From the sequence record MZ234031.1: 64,000 nt of DNA; one strand, written 5' to 3'. The stretch's first letter is position 1. Each line of letters opens with the position of its first letter. The position numbers were made by a program, and so were the translations under genes. The notes under the pieces are model-generated. The model had not been told where the DNA came from, ran no database searches, and was given only the letters and a program-made list of their open reading frames with translations. Below are positions 48,017-53,071 of this stretch, in pieces. Origin of the DNA: Escherichia phage vB_EcoM-CHD94UKE2.

Positions 48017-48610
48017 ATGAACACACTGAAGAAAATTGTTGAGTTTATTCGCACTAAACTTGGTTCTGCTATGGCTAAGAATCTATCTGTTGAAGAACAG
48101 TATACTGCTGCAGCAGCAAAACTGCTTGATAAAATTAAAGACCTAAAAACTGCTTCTGTTAAATCTATTAATGAAGAAAAACGTATTCGTGAACTTGTTA
48201 TCGAAAAGAATCGACAAGCCGAATCAAAAGAGCGTGAAATTCGTAAACTTCTTTCCGAAGGTCAAGATGTAACAATGCATGCTAAACTCGGTTTACTATA
48301 TCGTCGAACAGCTGAGCAGTTGACTACTAAAGCTGATGGTTATGCTGAAATGCGAATTGAAATCGCCAAGAAAGTAGTTGAGTTAGATGATGCTCGCCAA
48401 GAACTTGCAGTTAAATTGGAATATATCCGTGAAACTCGTGCAGCAAATGCCCTTGGAATTAGTACTGCCGATGATGTAGTTGAAATTGCAGCACTGACTA
48501 AGGTTGATATTGAAGATACTCTTGCTCGAGTTGAAACCTTTAATGGCAATATTTCTGGGGTTGAAACCACCTCTGCTGATGTTCAGGAATACATTAATTC
48601 TCTGAAATAA
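48017..48610 (+). CDS. coiled-coil protein, possibly PspA/IM30-like (speculative)
   Basis: 197 aa, heptad-rich, Ala/Glu/Lys/Arg-rich helices; hairpin terminator-like element downstream. Confidence 0.6.
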
Positions 48611-48615
48611 TGATA

Positions 48616-48631
48616 AGGGGCTTCGGCCCCT
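48616..48631 (+). other. stable hairpin after ORF 48017 (UUCG tetraloop)
   Basis: AGGGGC-TTCG-GCCCCT; weak T-tract, so possibly RNA stability element rather than terminator. Confidence 0.5.
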
Positions 48632-48651
48632 ATTACTTGGAGTAAATAGGA

Positions 48652-49260
48652 ATGAGAATGCAAAATGATTTCAATTCAATGGTTGAAGAGTTCCAAAGAC
48701 AGGTTGATGTTCCAGACCAATTACTGAATGCTCTTAAACGTATGGCAGAAGGACGTAATTACTATTGGGGGTCTTCATATGAAACTGACGAAAGTCTTTC
48801 TGGAAGATTTTATAGAGGTAAAAAGTCTTTAATACGCCCTGGAATACTCATTAAAAGTATTGAATCAATTCATTCATTGACGTGTGATTTTGATGTTGAA
48901 TTTACTGATTTCATTTCTCCTGAATGGACAGTTTGTTATTTAAACGACGATTATGATTATCTTGGCGTTTATAGTTTAAGTGACGCATGGTTTAAACGTA
49001 ATTTACAAAAGTCAAATTTATTTTATATTGATACTACGGTAAAATTTCAGGGAAAGAAATATTTCTTTACTCTTATAGTTGACTCTGAAACAAAATATGA
49101 AAATAAGCGTATTCTTAGTAAAAAGAATATCTTGACTATTATTGATGATCTTTTTGATAAATTCGTGGAAAATCCCAGTTTTGAAAGCGATTTATTACTA
49201 GAAAAATTTGTTAAGGAATGTAGAGAATATGTCAAAGCCATCACTATACCTTCCAAGTAA
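48652..49260 (+). CDS. hypothetical protein
   Basis: 202 aa; C-terminal FVKECREY region encoded over the ribosome-binding region of the next gene. Confidence 0.6.
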   Translation: MRMQNDFNSMVEEFQRQVDVPDQLLNALKRMAEGRNYYWGSSYETDESLSGRFYRGKKSLIRPGILIKSIESIHSLTCDFDVEFTDFISPEWTVCYLNDDYDYLGVYSLSDAWFKRNLQKSNLFYIDTTVKFQGKKYFFTLIVDSETKYENKRILSKKNILTIIDDLFDKFVENPSFESDLLLEKFVKECREYVKAITIPSK

Positions 49261-49621
49261 ACCTTTGAAATATGAACTAAAGCGCCAGATAATTTCTACC
49301 GATGCATTAATGGGTCCTGTGGTAGCTGTATCATTTGTAATTCTACTGATTGCTGGAATGGTTATAGACGTTATGACAGATATTGAATCTGGCGTAATAT
49401 TTGGAGCAACGTTAATTCTTCCATTAGTAGTTCCATTTTTATTGGTACCTGTAAATTGGGTAGGATACTGGTATCAAGGAAGGCATTATCGTAAACGCGT
49501 ACGTGAATGGAAAGCTCAGTGTAAAAAGATTAAAAAGGAACACCAGCTTAAACTAGATATGTATGAATTTAACGAAATTATGAAATTTGTTAAGGAATCA
49601 CGATGCAAAAGCCAAAACTAA
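49229..49621 (+). CDS. two-TM membrane protein, paralog family member A
   Basis: track start TTG 49208; ATG 49229 after AAGGAA; two hydrophobic helices; C-terminal FVKESRCK. Confidence 0.6.
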   Translation: MSKPSLYLPSKPLKYELKRQIISTDALMGPVVAVSFVILLIAGMVIDVMTDIESGVIFGATLILPLVVPFLLVPVNWVGYWYQGRHYRKRVREWKAQCKKIKKEHQLKLDMYEFNEIMKFVKESRCKSQN

Positions 49622-49965
49622 ATAAAGTCAAATATTCGTTTCTTGAGGCACTATTAATTCTTGCCGTATCAGTATTTGCAGCTCTTGCGGGTAGTCTTAT
49701 TGGACTAATGATTGACTGTTTTATTTTAAACGTCGATAGTTCAGCAATTATAACAGAGGTTTGGAGCGAACTTCGTTATACTATAGCGATTTCATTATTT
49801 TCATTCTTTGGTACTATACTATATTTTCATTATGATAATTTTAAAATAAATTGGCAAAGAAAAAAGGATTATAAAATACAATTAAAAGAATATAACAACT
49901 ACATGTCTTATATTGAAAATGAATCAATGAAAGAGTTTGTGAGTGATTGTAGGAAAATCAGATGA
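49603..49965 (+). CDS. two-TM membrane protein, paralog family member B
   Basis: 120 aa; N-terminus MQKPKL similar to member A MSKPSL; C-terminal FVSDCRKI. Confidence 0.6.
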   Translation: MQKPKLNKVKYSFLEALLILAVSVFAALAGSLIGLMIDCFILNVDSSAIITEVWSELRYTIAISLFSFFGTILYFHYDNFKINWQRKKDYKIQLKEYNNYMSYIENESMKEFVSDCRKIR

Positions 49966-50450
49966 TTTTAAAAACTCGCTGGTATGATTTAGATGATGGG
50001 GATGATGGCATTCCAGTTGATAGAGTTGACTGGAATGGCTGTTCCGAAGATATGAAAAATTTGCTGATTAGGGAGTTTAGAATGGGATATCAACCAGTTA
50101 AGCCATCTACTGCAACAGATGATAAATTCGTGTGTATTCATAATGGTCGCGCTAAATTAACGAACGCTGATTGGTTCACAGATAAAATTATGATTCTGTG
50201 GTATATTATTAGTCTTCCTGTGACATCATTCGTATTTTACTTTTTTATAAAAAATCCAATGGACAGAATAGGAGATTGGATTCTTTTAACCATACTTGTT
50301 AATATTTTTACAGCAGCAATACTATCAGGAATATGGTGCGTGTTCATTGAAATGCCATGGCGGTTACGCAGGCAGCAAAAGATTTTTGATGAAAAGAAAT
50401 ATACTCAAAATTTAAATAACTTTATTACTGAATGCAGGAAATTAAAATGA
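49962..50450 (+). CDS. two-TM membrane protein, paralog family member C
   Basis: 162 aa; hydrophobic helices; C-terminal FITECRKL; ATGA coupling at both ends. Confidence 0.6.
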   Translation: MILKTRWYDLDDGDDGIPVDRVDWNGCSEDMKNLLIREFRMGYQPVKPSTATDDKFVCIHNGRAKLTNADWFTDKIMILWYIISLPVTSFVFYFFIKNPMDRIGDWILLTILVNIFTAAILSGIWCVFIEMPWRLRRQQKIFDEKKYTQNLNNFITECRKLK

Positions 50451-50887
50451 AAACATTATCAGCTGGTATTATCTTTATGACAGAAGATAAAGATTTATTT
50501 ATGGGTCGAGTTACTGGTTCTCGTAAGCCTGGAATGATGGCACATCGCTGGGATATTCCAAAGGGCCGCGTAGAAAATTCTGATTTAAGCGCACTAGATG
50601 CAGCACGAAGAGAATGTTTAGAAGAGACTGGTTTTAGCAATTATAATCCAGACCTTCTAGAAGACCTATGTGTATTTAAATATTCTAGTAATAAAGACCT
50701 ACAGTTATTTTATTATACGATTCCAGTAGAGCATGAGATGTTTAGAAATTGCCATTGCGAGTCTTATTTTGAAAATAAAGATGGCGTTATGATTCCAGAG
50801 ATGGATGCTTTTGCTCTTATTCCTCGTACTCAGTGGCAATATGTGATGGGTCCTTCACTTTACCGAATAATGAACAACCTCTTTTAA
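50447..50887 (+). CDS. nudE: Nudix hydrolase NudE
   Basis: Nudix box GRVENSDLSALDAARRECLEETGF; ATG 50447 in ATGA junction (alternative ATG 50432); immediately upstream of e as in T4 (e.1). Confidence 0.8.
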   Translation: MKTLSAGIIFMTEDKDLFMGRVTGSRKPGMMAHRWDIPKGRVENSDLSALDAARRECLEETGFSNYNPDLLEDLCVFKYSSNKDLQLFYYTIPVEHEMFRNCHCESYFENKDGVMIPEMDAFALIPRTQWQYVMGPSLYRIMNNLF

Positions 50888-51690
<803 letters not shown>

Positions 51691-51721: not shown

Positions 51722-51748
51722 ACATTCATCAACTACTTGGAGGAAATT

Positions 51749-52162
51749 ATGACTCGTATCAATTTAACACTTGTTTCTGAACTGACCGACCAACATCTTA
51801 TGGCTGAGTATCGTGAATTACCACGCGTATTTGGTGCAGTCCGTAAACATGTTCAAAACGGTAAACGTGTAAAGGATTTTAAAATCTCTCCAACATTTAT
51901 CTTAGGCACAGGTCACGTAACATTCTTTTATGACAAACTCGAATTTTTACGTTTACGTCAAATCGAGCTAATCGCTGAATGCTTGAAACGTGGTTTCAAA
52001 ATCAAGGACACGACTGTCCAGGATATTTCCGACATCCCTGTCGAATTTCGTAATAATTATGTCCCGTCCGAAGCGTCCATTGCGATAAGTCAAGCTCGCT
52101 TAGATGAAAAAATTGCTCAACGCCCTACTTGGTACAAATACTATGGTAAATCAATTTACTAA
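51749..52162 (+). CDS. denV: endonuclease V (pyrimidine dimer DNA glycosylase)
   Basis: track ORF starts at TTG 51737; ATG 51749 after GGAGGAAA; [29 protein letters not shown]... matches T4 EndoV. Confidence 0.95.
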
Positions 52163-52168
52163 GGAAAA

Positions 52169-52429
52169 ATGAAAATGTATCAAGAATTTATCGCTGAAGC
52201 AGATGCCAAAGGCCCCAAATTTAAAGTTAAAGCTTTCGTTGGTGATGCCGAAGATTTTGGCTCATTAAAACGTAATGGGTATTTTTTCTTAGGTGGTGAT
52301 GGTAAAGAAATCAACACCTATGCAAAACGTAGTGAAATTGCTTATGTTGCTGCAAGTCCTAAAGTAGATGTTGACGATATTGGATACGATTTTAACAACT
52401 TCGGAATTATTTCTGGCGGTGAAGCTTAA
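52169..52429 (+). CDS. internal protein with capsid-targeting sequence (ipII-like size)
   Basis: MKMYQEFIAE|ADAKGPKF..., 86 aa. Confidence 0.75.
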   Translation: MKMYQEFIAEADAKGPKFKVKAFVGDAEDFGSLKRNGYFFLGGDGKEINTYAKRSEIAYVAASPKVDVDDIGYDFNNFGIISGGEA

Positions 52430-52492: not shown

Positions 52493-53071
52493 ATGAAAAC
52501 ATATAAAGAATTTATTGCTGAAGCTTCTGTAGTAAAGGCCAAAGGCATTAATAAGGACGAGTGGAACTATCGTGGTGGAAACGGCTTTGACCCTAAAACA
52601 GCCCCTATTGAACGATACTTAGCTACAAAAGCTTCCGATTTTAAAGCTTTCGCTTGGGAAGGACTTCGCTGGCGTACCGATTTAAATATTGAAGTTGACG
52701 GACTTAAATTTGCTCATATTGAAGATGTTGTTGCTAGTAACTTAGACGCAGCTTTTGTTAAAGCCGACAGTGATCTTCGTCGCTGGAATTTAAAACTGTT
52801 CTCTAAACAAAAAGGCCCGAAGTTTGTGCCTAAAGCCGGTAAATGGGTCATTGATAATAAATTAGCTAAGGCTGTCAACTACGCTGGTCTTGAATTCGCC
52901 AAGCACAAATCATCATGGAAAGGTCTTGATGCAATGGCTTTCCGTAAAGAATTTGCCGATGTTATGGCTAAAGGCGGCTTTAAGGCAGAAATAGATACCT
53001 CTAAAGGTACGTTTAAGGACGCTAATGTTCAGTACGCTTACGCCGTTGCTAATGCAGCCCGTGGTAATTAA
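52493..53071 (+). CDS. internal protein with capsid-targeting sequence (ipIII-like size)
   Basis: MKTYKEFIAE|ASVVKAKG..., 192 aa (T4 IPIII about 194 aa); own early promoter. Confidence 0.8.
   Translation: MKTYKEFIAEASVVKAKGINKDEWNYRGGNGFDPKTAPIERYLATKASDFKAFAWEGLRWRTDLNIEVDGLKFAHIEDVVASNLDAAFVKADSDLRRWNLKLFSKQKGPKFVPKAGKWVIDNKLAKAVNYAGLEFAKHKSSWKGLDAMAFRKEFADVMAKGGFKAEIDTSKGTFKDANVQYAYAVANAARGN

Follow-up and report, generated by a model that had tools for sequence, protein, structure and literature searches.

The stretch of DNA analysed here, which we call the window, comprises 64,000 nucleotides of Escherichia phage vB_EcoM-CHD94UKE2 (MZ234031.1). A trio of its open reading frames had been described in a first-pass annotation as paralogous two-TM membrane proteins. 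The phage is a T4-type coliphage (Tequatrovirus), and the three frames are its versions of e.4, e.3 and e.2, early genes that are already known; they sit inside a tightly coupled e.5-e.4-e.3-e.2-nudE block of which nudE is the final gene (Table 1). Identity to MZ234035 is 100%, and across e.5-nudE the DNA is 92.5% identical to that of T4. A GC-rich hairpin marks its upstream edge; the hairpin is palindromic, and the scan called its strand as minus.

Table 1. Features of the coupled block and its junctions, with positions counted from the first letter of the window.
Feature	Position	Strand	Description
GC-rich UUCG hairpin AGGGGCTTCGGCCCCT	48616..48631	+	e.6/e.5 intergenic gap
e.5	48652..49260	+	202 aa, soluble; PHROG 2607, E = 3.6e-108; synteny with T4 e.5
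Exact 16-mer AAATTTGTTAAGGAAT, copy 1	49204..49219	+	encodes K-F-V-K-E of e.5; AAGGA is an SD-like element upstream of the e.4 start
e.4	49229..49621	+	130 aa; PHROG 2604, E = 3.3e-70 over 1-130/130; T4 synteny
Exact 16-mer AAATTTGTTAAGGAAT, copy 2	49583..49598	+	encodes K-F-V-K-E of e.4; AAGGA 6 nt upstream of the e.3 ATG
e.3	49603..49965	+	120 aa; PHROG 2330, E = 7.5e-56; T4 synteny
e.2	49962..50450	+	162 aa; PHROG 2203, E = 1.3e-79
nudE (Nudix hydrolase)	50447..50887	+	Pfam NUDIX, E = 4.8e-13; T4 annotation

By sequence and synteny e.4, e.3, e.2 and e.5 are orthologs of the T4 genes (UniProt P39222, P32274, P32273 and P39223, respectively), and their PHROG matches run the full length. The placement of e.4 between e.5 and e.3, and of e.3 between e.4 and e.2, is that of T4; e.4 has 99 homologs and e.3 has 45. 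Precomputed annotation puts PF26873 on e.4 homologs and PF26896 on e.2 homologs, and the T4 annotation of e.2, e.3 and e.4 already reads 'predicted membrane protein'. The e.2 gene is intact here, whereas a frameshift leaves the T4 reference copy at 102 aa. In T4 the RNAs of e.2-e.5 are classed as early, all four proteins have been detected, and the e.4 protein is found early (PMC9697503 supplement). Literature searches returned no function for e.2-e.5.

The claim that each member of the trio has two hydrophobic helices agrees with the 19-residue Kyte-Doolittle peaks, which are 2.73 and 2.50 in e.4, 1.99 and 2.31 in e.2, and 2.52 and a weaker 1.44 in e.3. No hydrophobic segment or peak is present in e.5. 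The e.4 protein has a basic N-terminus (5 K/R), TM1 at about 31-49, an acidic 5-aa loop, TM2 at about 55-73 and a basic 54-aa tail that ends FVKESRCKSQN before the stop. In e.3, TM1 (about 17-35) is separated by an acidic 19-aa loop from the weaker TM2 (about 57-75), and the tail is again basic. The e.2 protein begins with a conserved, predicted cytoplasmic N-domain (1-75) that carries the family signature W..LDDGD.G..V..VDW..C ... GYQP, followed by TM1 at about 78-96, TM2 at about 111-129 and a basic tail. Lysine and arginine are enriched at the N-termini and tails of the two-TM proteins and the loops are acidic, so by the positive-inside rule only we predict all three to be N-in/C-in hairpins. 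The TM segments and the loop vary most between homologs, and the parts predicted to be cytoplasmic are the most conserved.

The genes from e.5 to nudE overlap or abut, with no intergenic DNA between them. The 3' end of e.5 overlaps the e.4 start by 32 nt, and the e.3 and e.2 stops overlap the starts of e.2 and nudE (ATGA); the two ATGA junctions reported earlier, GGAAAATCAGATGA and GGAAATTAAAATGA, are both in the sequence. The reported 16-mer repeat is also real, with two exact copies, but the positions claimed for it, 49205 and 49582, are each one base off. Two more features, the stretch ATGnnAAAGCCAnnACTA and an M-x-K-P-x-L N-terminus, are common to the e.5/e.4 and e.4/e.3 junctions. Since the two 16-mers encode the same pentapeptide, KFVKE, under an AT-rich codon bias, we believe their identity is weak evidence for recent duplication. 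Promoter-like matches are at background (24 against 20.2 +/- 5.0), and there is no terminator within 48652-50887.

The similar C-terminal peptide noticed in the trio stands far above chance in six-frame shuffles. The e.4 protein ends KFVKESRCKSQN, e.3 ends EFVSDCRKIR (its tail is MKEFVSDCRKIR, with the motif F codon at 49936), and e.2 ends NFITECRKLK, or in longer form NNFITECRKLK, with its motif F codon at 50421. The pattern F[IV].[ED]CR has 3 matches in the six frames of the 64-kb window against 0.08 expected (at most 1 in any of 100 shuffles), and F[IV]K[ED].R has 2 against 0.15. Every match to either pattern is an in-frame C-terminus, and all of them fall inside 1.25 kb. A further 50 kb of this genome gave zero matches to the motif, for 114 of 168 kb scanned in all. 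The motif is not limited to the two-TM trio as had been supposed. The soluble e.5 carries it as LLEKFVKECREYV, 11 residues ahead of its stop, and the first 16-mer copy lies within e.5, so the motif marks four adjacent genes and not three. We conclude that e.5, e.4, e.3 and e.2 end in a common, conserved, short C-terminal peptide that is predicted to be helical. A link between e.2-e.5 by a C-terminal motif is absent from the T4 annotation and from the papers we searched. An IMG/VR scan for the FIKECRK coding pattern gave 44 loci, only 2 of which are Mosig-like e.3 genes; the others are chance matches or belong to an unrelated family of 174-aa proteins that have the motif in mid-protein, and the scan was uninformative. 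A likeness between E-F-[IV]-x-E and the capsid-targeting sequence MKTYxEFIAE of neighbouring internal proteins was considered, but the stretch is too short to give it support.

What is selected at these gene ends? In the e.5, e.3 and e.2 families F-Φ-x-x-C-R is the most conserved element across Tevenvirinae genera, and it is kept in orthologs at 15-50% identity from Mosig-, Gapriver-, Jiaoda-, Kanagawa-, Marfa-, Biquarta- and Pseudotevenvirus. Across 10 genera only M1, F186 and C190 of e.5 are invariant, with R191 nearly so. The invariant columns of e.2 are F154, I155, C158 and R159; they are common to homologs at 27-37% identity, and every distant full-length e.2 homolog ends FI(K/E/T)xCR. 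The e.4 orthologs have S, I, V or M at the Cys position, so the e.4 copy may be degenerate or differently used. It could be argued that the peptide is merely a by-product of nucleotide constraint on the initiation or coupling of the next gene and has no function in the protein. The constrained element might be an SD preceded by a U-rich enhancer, or else the operator of a translational repressor, for instance RegA. Several facts fit this idea. In most junctions the best SD of the next ORF is AAGGA in the x-x codons (K-E as AAG GAR), stop codons overlap or adjoin the start that follows (ATGA), and there is an upstream U-rich TTTRTT. The T4 RegA SELEX consensus, AAAAUUGUUAUGUAA, loosely resembles AAAUUUGUUAAGGAAU. 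However, the motif uses every one of the six Arg codons and both codons of Cys and of Phe. The SD does not include the invariant F, Φ, C and R, and where the SD is elsewhere it is the x-x positions that drift (DQ, KH, DY, HS). In the e.3 and e.2 studied here the SD is in the C-R-K codons instead of K-E and the peptide is unchanged. The motif is also kept without a coupled downstream gene: in RB43 e.5 it lies 25 codons before the stop, and in 44RR e.5 it contains no SD and lies about 30 nt ahead of the start that follows. There is no Rfam match either. Since F, Φ, C and R persist whichever synonymous codon is used, and in 44RR and RB43 even where no gene is coupled downstream, the motif is not merely encoded by a ribosome-binding site. 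The earlier statement that the peptide is encoded across the next gene's ribosome-binding site is right in that the two overlap, with the middle K-E as the SD in most junctions. Nucleotide constraint as the sole explanation is largely refuted, and we consider it extremely unlikely; F-Φ-x-x-C-R is selected at the amino-acid level.

A more serious alternative is that one ancestral two-TM gene was serially duplicated together with its initiation region to give e.4, e.3 and e.2, as the first-pass annotation proposed. Divergence of the copies would then have been so rapid that nothing but the junction-constrained C-terminus, and the N-terminus, can still be recognised. The common architecture (an N-in hairpin, a basic tail and a terminal motif) within one operon favours this, as do the shared 16-mer, second stretch and N-terminal start of the first two junctions. 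Jiaodavirus KP179 has a trio of its own, in which an unannotated frame, ORF98, is e.4-like beyond the motif (7/500 shuffles). The e.4 and e.3 proteins are reciprocal best non-family HMM matches among 218 ORFs and align in hhalign at 88-89% (E = 3.4e-6 local, 2.6e-7 global), with P = 1e-3 local and 5e-5 global after 12 aa are masked. Yet the only BLASTP match among pairs of the trio is between the last 14 aa of e.3 and e.2 (E = 0.013), and the unmasked profile-profile matches span the tail end only: e.3-e.2 (Prob 94%, E = 1.7e-7), e.4-e.3 (88%, 3.4e-6), e.5-e.2 (79%, 1.6e-5) and e.5-e.3 (P = 2.6e-4). We then masked the last 12 residues. Column shuffles of the masked tails gave 13/100 for e.4-e.3, but a null of that kind does not treat TM segments fairly, and topology-preserving (segment) shuffles were used in its place. 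With segment shuffles 60/500 and 121/500 reach the observed e.4-e.3 score, which is not significant, and nothing is significant for e.2 against either e.4 or e.3. Masked hhalign of e.2 against e.3 or e.4 gives P = 0.02-0.7, and reversed controls score equally well; the diverse e.2 profile is likewise not significant when masked. In addition, the e.2 family has its own conserved N-domain of 75 aa and has had an independent history, e.5 has the motif without the TM body, and the trio falls in separate PHROGs even though PHROGs were built by remote-homology clustering. Paralogy is thus not confirmed: with the junction residues masked, similarity is lost for e.2 against both partners and is borderline to negative for e.4-e.3, so that essentially no significant pairwise similarity is left. 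If the TM bodies did share an ancestor, the motif could be an inherited remnant and not a docking site maintained independently, but e.5 argues otherwise. We consider serial duplication unlikely, though it deserves to be taken seriously. A repeated junction motif and a common TM architecture are insufficient to establish paralogy.

The array is nevertheless variable in the way that had been anticipated, with 0 to 4 two-TM members per genus across T4-like phages. In UFV05/06 an in-frame e.4::e.2 chimera stands in place of the three genes, with its breakpoint in TM1 across a 7-nt microhomology. In P0204 the e.2 tail is joined to another body. In Mosig- and Gaprivervirus e.3 is parted from e.2, nudE and e by other genes that span about 4 kb, and the gene after e.3 differs among genera while the junction is retained. 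T4 is known to amplify and delete loci via short flanking homologies (Srikant et al. 2022, PMC9391042). The e.5-e.2 array is accessory and plastic: short-homology recombination adds genes to it, removes them, fuses them and shifts their frames. One could go further and suppose that the conserved gene ends are mainly in-frame recombination linkers, which let co-infecting T4-like phages swap, duplicate or delete ORF bodies without breaking translational coupling, as a coding analogue of PeSL cassettes. There is a precedent in T4-type hyperplastic regions, where PeSLs mediate shuffling (Arbiol et al. 2010, PMC2839356). The changing number of members, the gene 3' of e.3 that varies behind a constant junction, the P0204 fusion and the short-homology recombination of T4 would all fit, and even non-orthologous junctions can be nearly identical (T4 e.5/e.4 TTTGTTAAGGAATGTAGAGAATATG against Mosig e.3/next TTTATTAAGGAATGTAGAAAATG). 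In PeSL cassettes, as in the e array, a short conserved sequence recurs where the genes of a variable accessory region meet (PMC2839356; Comeau et al. 2014, PMC4122927), and in both the copy-number changes, deletions and fusions fit short-homology recombination. A PeSL, however, is an intergenic sigma-70 promoter plus a stem-loop terminator, which the e-array junctions lack; the element here is coding and is conserved as peptide. The sole mapped breakpoint, that of the UFV chimera, is in TM1 and outside the motif, the motif persists off junctions in distant e.5 homologs, and synonymous codon variation usually leaves the identical junction DNA too short for homologous recombination. A linker function as the main reason for the conserved ends is very unlikely in our opinion.

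The position of the trio near the endolysin gene also suggests that the two-TM proteins might be holin, antiholin or pinholin-like factors that time lysis together with endolysin e. They resemble class II holins such as S21 of phage 21 in being small, with two TMDs, a predicted N-in/C-in topology and a highly charged, basic cytoplasmic C-terminus, and only nudE lies between them and e. T4 lysis, though, is already accounted for by t, rI and rIII. The trio differs from class II holins in having no holin family match in Pfam or PHROGs (E <= 0.1-1) and in its conserved terminal F-Φ-x-x-C-R helix, which is found on a soluble protein too; it also lacks the holin dual-start motif. The genes are dispensable or frameshifted in T4, where e.2 is broken, and the single chimera replaces all three genes in viable phages. 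The roughly 4 kb that part e.3 from e in Mosig- and Gaprivervirus weaken the argument from position, and the e.2-e.4 RNAs and the e.4 protein are early and not late (PMC9697503 supplement). We give a lysis role almost no credence. More generally, none of the HMM libraries searched supports the exclusion, lysis-timing or anti-defence roles once suggested, and PADLOC, NCBIfam and PDB returned no match to defence or anti-defence families. PDB sequence searches with e.5, e.2 and e.6 gave no usable match. A PspA-like role for the coiled-coil e.6 was considered and dropped, as neither Pfam nor PDB supports it.

We lean, with caution, towards a reading in which a shared docking helix is displayed on the membrane-anchored tails and on e.5, within a coupled accessory array. 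What is demonstrated in it is the identity of the genes and their architecture, the conservation of the motif and its dual coding, and the plasticity and expression of the array. The e.4, e.3 and e.2 proteins would be inner-membrane hairpins, comparable in architecture to T4 Imm, another small two-TM phage membrane protein. Their variable TM hairpins would serve mainly as anchors, leaving the N-terminus, the basic tail and the motif exposed to the cytoplasm, and e.5 would display the same helix on a soluble body. All four would end in an amphipathic helix of about 11-15 residues, Φ-x-x-F-[IV]-x-x-C-R(-K), with F, Φ, C and R on one face. Its hydrophobic moment is 0.53-0.64 in e.5, e.3 and e.2 and lower in e.4 (0.38). 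AF2 puts the motif in a helix at low confidence (e.2 pLDDT 51 from a 17-sequence MSA, e.5 pLDDT 43 from a single sequence); as these models are poor, the helix is based on low-confidence secondary-structure prediction and periodicity. Its face would most likely be a docking or assembly surface for a common cytoplasmic partner, which could be another of the four proteins or a factor of host or phage. Translation would be coupled through to nudE, and the middle positions are usually K-E because AAG-GAR doubles as the SD of the next ORF. Topology, the helix, partner docking and any phenotype are the parts that we infer.

The clamp-binding C-termini of T4 gp43, gp33 and gp55 are a familiar example of short linear docking motifs. 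As with the e-motif, a short terminal peptide on dissimilar proteins is the most conserved part of each family; the sequences are unrelated and the likeness is one of logic only. We can put forward a bolder proposal, which we regard as doubtful and quite unlikely at present. F-[IV]-x-x-C-R(-K) might be an undescribed Tevenvirinae linear motif that brings 4-5 otherwise unrelated early proteins per genome (e.5 and the other members) to a common partner at the cytoplasmic face of the inner membrane, and its use as SD might lock the peptide to translational coupling and turn the gene ends into modules that recombination can exchange. The further members would be, for example, KP179 ORF98 and ORF108, and ESh15 ORF101.

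The e.2-e.5 genes are four of the many early genes of T4 that lack an assigned function. Their ends let the overlapping constraints of a compact phage operon be told apart, since a single heptapeptide has four positions held by protein function and two held by the SD of the downstream gene. If the four neighbours do share one terminal helix, conserved at the peptide level from coliphages to Aeromonas phages, it would be an easier way in than the study of four unrelated hypothetical proteins and would give an experimental handle on a common partner.

The window stretch 48600-50900 is 100% identical to Escherichia phage vB_EcoM-G3F7 (MZ234035) and 92.5% identical to T4 by megablast, and the three two-TM ORFs in it genuinely belong to the T4 e.4, e.3 and e.2 families. 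Local sequence searches against Pfam-A, NCBIfam, PADLOC and PDB returned no match. The genes and their membrane character were already known, since the T4 counterparts are annotated as 'conserved hypothetical, predicted membrane protein', the RNAs of T4 e.2-e.5 are classed as early, and all four proteins have been detected by mass spectrometry (PMC9697503 supplement). Automated GenBank labels for these small genes, as met in our homolog searches, are unreliable: e.3/e.4 homologs are called 'sulfurtransferase', 'DNA primase' or 'head outer capsid protein', e.6 is a 'host specificity protein', and a run of unrelated MZ234035 genes are all 'thioredoxin'.

Features of the e.5-e region and of second-array loci in other phage genomes (L-numbers)
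Feature	Position	Strand	Basis
e.5 (202 aa)	48652-49260	+	T4 annotation; PHROG 2607 matched full-length
e.4	49229-49621	+	T4 annotation; PHROG 2604 matched full-length
e.3	49603-49965	+	T4 annotation; PHROG 2330 matched full-length
e.2	49962-50450	+	T4 annotation; PHROG 2203 matched full-length
nudE	50447-50887	+	T4 annotation
e	50924-51412		T4 annotation
16-mer AAATTTGTTAAGGAAT, first copy	49204-49219		exact repeat
16-mer, second copy	49583-49598		exact repeat
Hairpin AGGGGCTTCGGCCCCT	48616-48631		GC-rich, UUCG loop
ORFs 3' of e with similar starts	51409-51690, 52169-52429, 52493-53071		N-termini
ORF between them	51737-52162		T4 denV position
Second array, L002	3231-3818
Second array, L004	3191-4207
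Second array, L007	5210-6045
Second array, L008	5067-5871
Second array, L009	4802-5328

The first copy of the 16-mer lies inside e.5, which is soluble and outside the two-TM trio, so the motif marks four consecutive genes. Their C-termini read KFVKECRE (e.5), KFVKESRC (e.4), EFVSDCRK (e.3) and NFITECRK (e.2); the motif is written F-Φ-x-x-C-R, with Φ as I or V. Six-frame translation of the whole window gives 3 occurrences of F[IV].[ED]CR against 0.08 expected, all three being these in-frame C-termini, and an additional 50 kb of this phage's genome holds none. The repeated junction motif seen in the first-pass annotation is real and non-random, and both ATGA junctions are present as claimed, but its scope is four genes, one of them soluble, and not the two-TM trio. 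No intergenic DNA separates the ORFs of the e.5-nudE block, each of which overlaps or abuts the next. For nudE there are two candidate starts. The upstream ATG (50432) used by the T4 annotation gives MQEIKMKTL... and 151 aa and sits inside the C-R-K codons of e.2; the ATG at 50447 makes an ATGA stop/start overlap, with AGGAAA 7 nt upstream. The hairpin lies in the 41-nt e.6/e.5 gap 5' of e.5 and has no T-run on the + strand; the same position is likewise GC-rich in other genera (GGGGCT, GGGGCC, GGGGGC). Upstream of e the window carries TATAAATA sequences, which from established T4 knowledge we take to be late-promoter-like.

Wherever orthologs of the four genes exist in the loci compared (T4, Mosigvirus, Gaprivervirus, Jiaodavirus, Kanagawavirus, Marfavirus, Karamvirus, Biquartavirus 44RR and Pseudotevenvirus RB43), the motif is present. 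A ten-genus alignment of e.5 (15-50% identity) leaves only M1, F186 and C190 invariant, with R191 nearly so. An exhaustive HMMER search yielded e.2 homologs that are full-length and 27-37% identical; their invariant positions are a set of N-domain columns plus F154, I155, C158 and R159, with no conservation of the TM region and tail. All six Arg, both Cys and both Phe codons occur in the motif over 23 genes. At most junctions AAGGA in the two middle codons (K-E) is the best Shine-Dalgarno (SD) match for the next ORF; in e.3 and e.2 of the window the SD falls in the C-R-K codons, not K-E. Where the SD is elsewhere or no coupled gene follows, as for e.5 in Gapriver, Kanagawa, Marfa, 44RR and RB43, the middle pair drifts (DQ, KH, DY, HS) and F, Φ, C and R are retained. 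Hence F-Φ-x-x-C-R is maintained at the amino-acid level, and the downstream ribosome-binding site shapes only x-x. We infer that the 16-mer identity is mostly explained by the shared pentapeptide KFVKE, given the AT-rich codon preference.

The first-pass annotation also read e.4, e.3 and e.2 as paralogs made by serial duplication of gene plus initiation region. Pairwise BLASTP of the trio finds a sole match, the last 14 residues of e.3 and e.2 (E = 0.013). Profile-profile comparison, with families enlarged by distant orthologs, gives matches restricted to the tail end: e.4-e.3 (Prob 88%, E = 3.4e-6, 40 tail columns), e.3-e.2 (Prob 94%, E = 1.7e-7, 36 columns), e.5-e.2 (Prob 79%, E = 1.6e-5, 15 columns) and e.5-e.3 (P = 2.6e-4, 10 columns). 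With the last 12 residues masked, e.2 has no similarity to e.3 or e.4, its P values being no better than reversed-sequence controls. We found no evidence that e.2, whose conserved 75-aa N-domain is its own, shares descent with the other two, and for this gene the duplication claim falls by the refutation test set in the first-pass annotation itself, loss of significant pairwise similarity on masking the junction-encoded residues. e.4 and e.3 are reciprocal best non-family matches among 218 local ORFs, and masked they still give hhalign P = 1e-3 (local) and 5e-5 (global); but the observed score is equalled in 13/100 runs when columns of the masked tails are shuffled, and by 60/500 and 121/500 shuffles of the window pair that preserve the N-term/TM1/loop/TM2/tail order. 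A level of about p = 0.02 is reached by just two cross-family pairs, KP179 ORF98 with e.4 (7/500) and Gapriver e.4 with e.3 (11/500). Since the masked similarity fails these stricter nulls, the demonstrable common module is the last 11-15 residues, and a common origin for e.4 and e.3 is conceivable but unproven.

Two hydrophobic helices had been assigned to each of the three ORFs. Hydropathy bears this out for e.4 (KD19 2.73 and 2.50) and e.2 (1.99 and 2.31); in e.3 the second segment is weaker (2.52 and 1.44), and e.5 has no hydrophobic segment. Lys and Arg concentrate at the N-termini and in the tails, and the loops between the TM segments are acidic, a charge distribution that fits an N-in/C-in hairpin. 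Across homologs the TM segments and loop are most variable; the N-terminus, tail and motif, all predicted cytoplasmic, are most conserved. The motif residues are spaced i, i+1, i+4, i+5 with an extra hydrophobic residue at -3, and the helical hydrophobic moment comes to 0.53-0.64 for e.5, e.3 and e.2 and to 0.38 for e.4. AF2 models make the motif a helix at unusably low confidence.

The number of motif-bearing two-TM genes 3' of e.5, a comparison the first-pass annotation had proposed, is variable across T4-like genera: 4 in Mosigvirus (e.4, e.3, ORF101, e.2), 3 in Tequatrovirus, Gaprivervirus and Jiaodavirus KP179, 1 in UFV05/06, Kanagawavirus and Marfavirus, and 0 in Karamvirus, 44RR and RB43. 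UFV05/06 carry an in-frame e.4::e.2 chimera in place of the trio; the join falls where TM1 begins in both parents and spans the heptamer TCCTGTG (7-nt microhomology). The protein of Escherichia phage vB_EcoM-UFV06 (P0099; L012 4710-5030, 106 aa), from a complete phage genome with nudE directly 3', comprises e.4 residues 1-31 and e.2 from TSFVFYFF onward. Reference T4 e.2 (L001 3863-4350, compared with the window gene) has lost one nucleotide from an A-run (A6 to A5), a -1 frameshift, and carries a compensating +1 shift 78 nt further on, so that its product is cut short at 102 aa; its C-terminal coding part (..NNFITECRKLK) is still present upstream of nudE, and a 22-member cluster of 102-aa proteins (P0194) shows this to be a genuine variant of a sublineage. 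Klebsiella phage KP179 (NC_055768) has a two-TM ORF of 98 aa that is missing from its annotation (L003 2851-3147); it ends AWIRSCRK* and overlaps its neighbours by ATGA on both sides. These neighbours are the e.4 homolog and a two-TM ORF of 108 aa ending SWIKEMK*, which gives Jiaodavirus a tandem trio of its own. Shigella phage ESh15 (Mosigvirus) encodes a 101-aa two-TM protein ending NFIKECRGK* (L014 832-1137) apart from e.4/e.3, with a 228-aa gene and the e.2 homolog downstream of it. Two metagenome-contig proteins, P0204 (83 aa, an unrelated N-terminal body plus the last 22 e.2 residues, LFDEKKYTQNLNNFITECRKLK) and P0098 (97 aa, e.4 residues 1-31 plus HTH_11-containing sequence), may mark the two boundaries of foreign DNA inserted in place of e.4-e.2, or reflect an assembly chimera. 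Short flanking homologies drive amplification and deletion in T4 accessory regions (PMC9391042), and the plasticity of this locus matches that behaviour. It also recalls shuffling by PeSLs, intergenic promoter plus stem-loop terminator units (PMC2839356), but the junctions here are not PeSLs.

Other recurrent peptides occur nearby or in relatives. A second tandem array, absent from the window, lies 3' of e.3 or e.4 in Mosig-, Gapriver-, Kanagawa-, Marfa- and Karamvirus. It consists of 2-4 small soluble paralogs, all ending W[VIL]SSSxxC* or xxSSC* and usually followed by TAAGGAA and the next start, and is a second case of a conserved C-terminal peptide at gene junctions. Some e.2 homologs (P0195, P0196, L013 2123-2710) have N-terminal extensions (MLYEVAGDGPG, MALYEPGCMG) that look like the first residues of e.5 homologs (KP179 MLYECAGDIP, Kosakonia MSFYEGCGPD) and like the LY.P start of e.4 (MSKPSLYLPSKP, MSNLYLPSEP); judged by these resemblances, a recurrent N-terminal peptide may accompany the C-terminal one. 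The three ORFs 3' of e have starts including MKTYKEFIAE, the capsid-targeting sequence of T4 internal proteins. They surround an ORF at the denV position, in an order different from that of T4 (e-ipIII-ipII-denV), and their E-F-[IL]-x-E core is loosely like the E/K-F-[IV]-K-E of the motif.

With class II holins e.4, e.3 and e.2 share architecture only; as holins they fail on expression time (early) and on sequence family (no holin match in Pfam or PHROGs). We believe that variable TM hairpins would anchor conserved cytoplasmic tails, and that these tails, and soluble e.5 alike, would present one common docking helix, which we infer binds a common partner. The block would be translated by coupling, with the middle codons of the helix reused as the SD of the next gene. 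A conserved C-terminal helix in four adjacent early-gene families across Tevenvirinae was not found described in the literature and annotation searched. It is a predicted helix conserved as a peptide and dual-coded with the Shine-Dalgarno sequence of the next gene.
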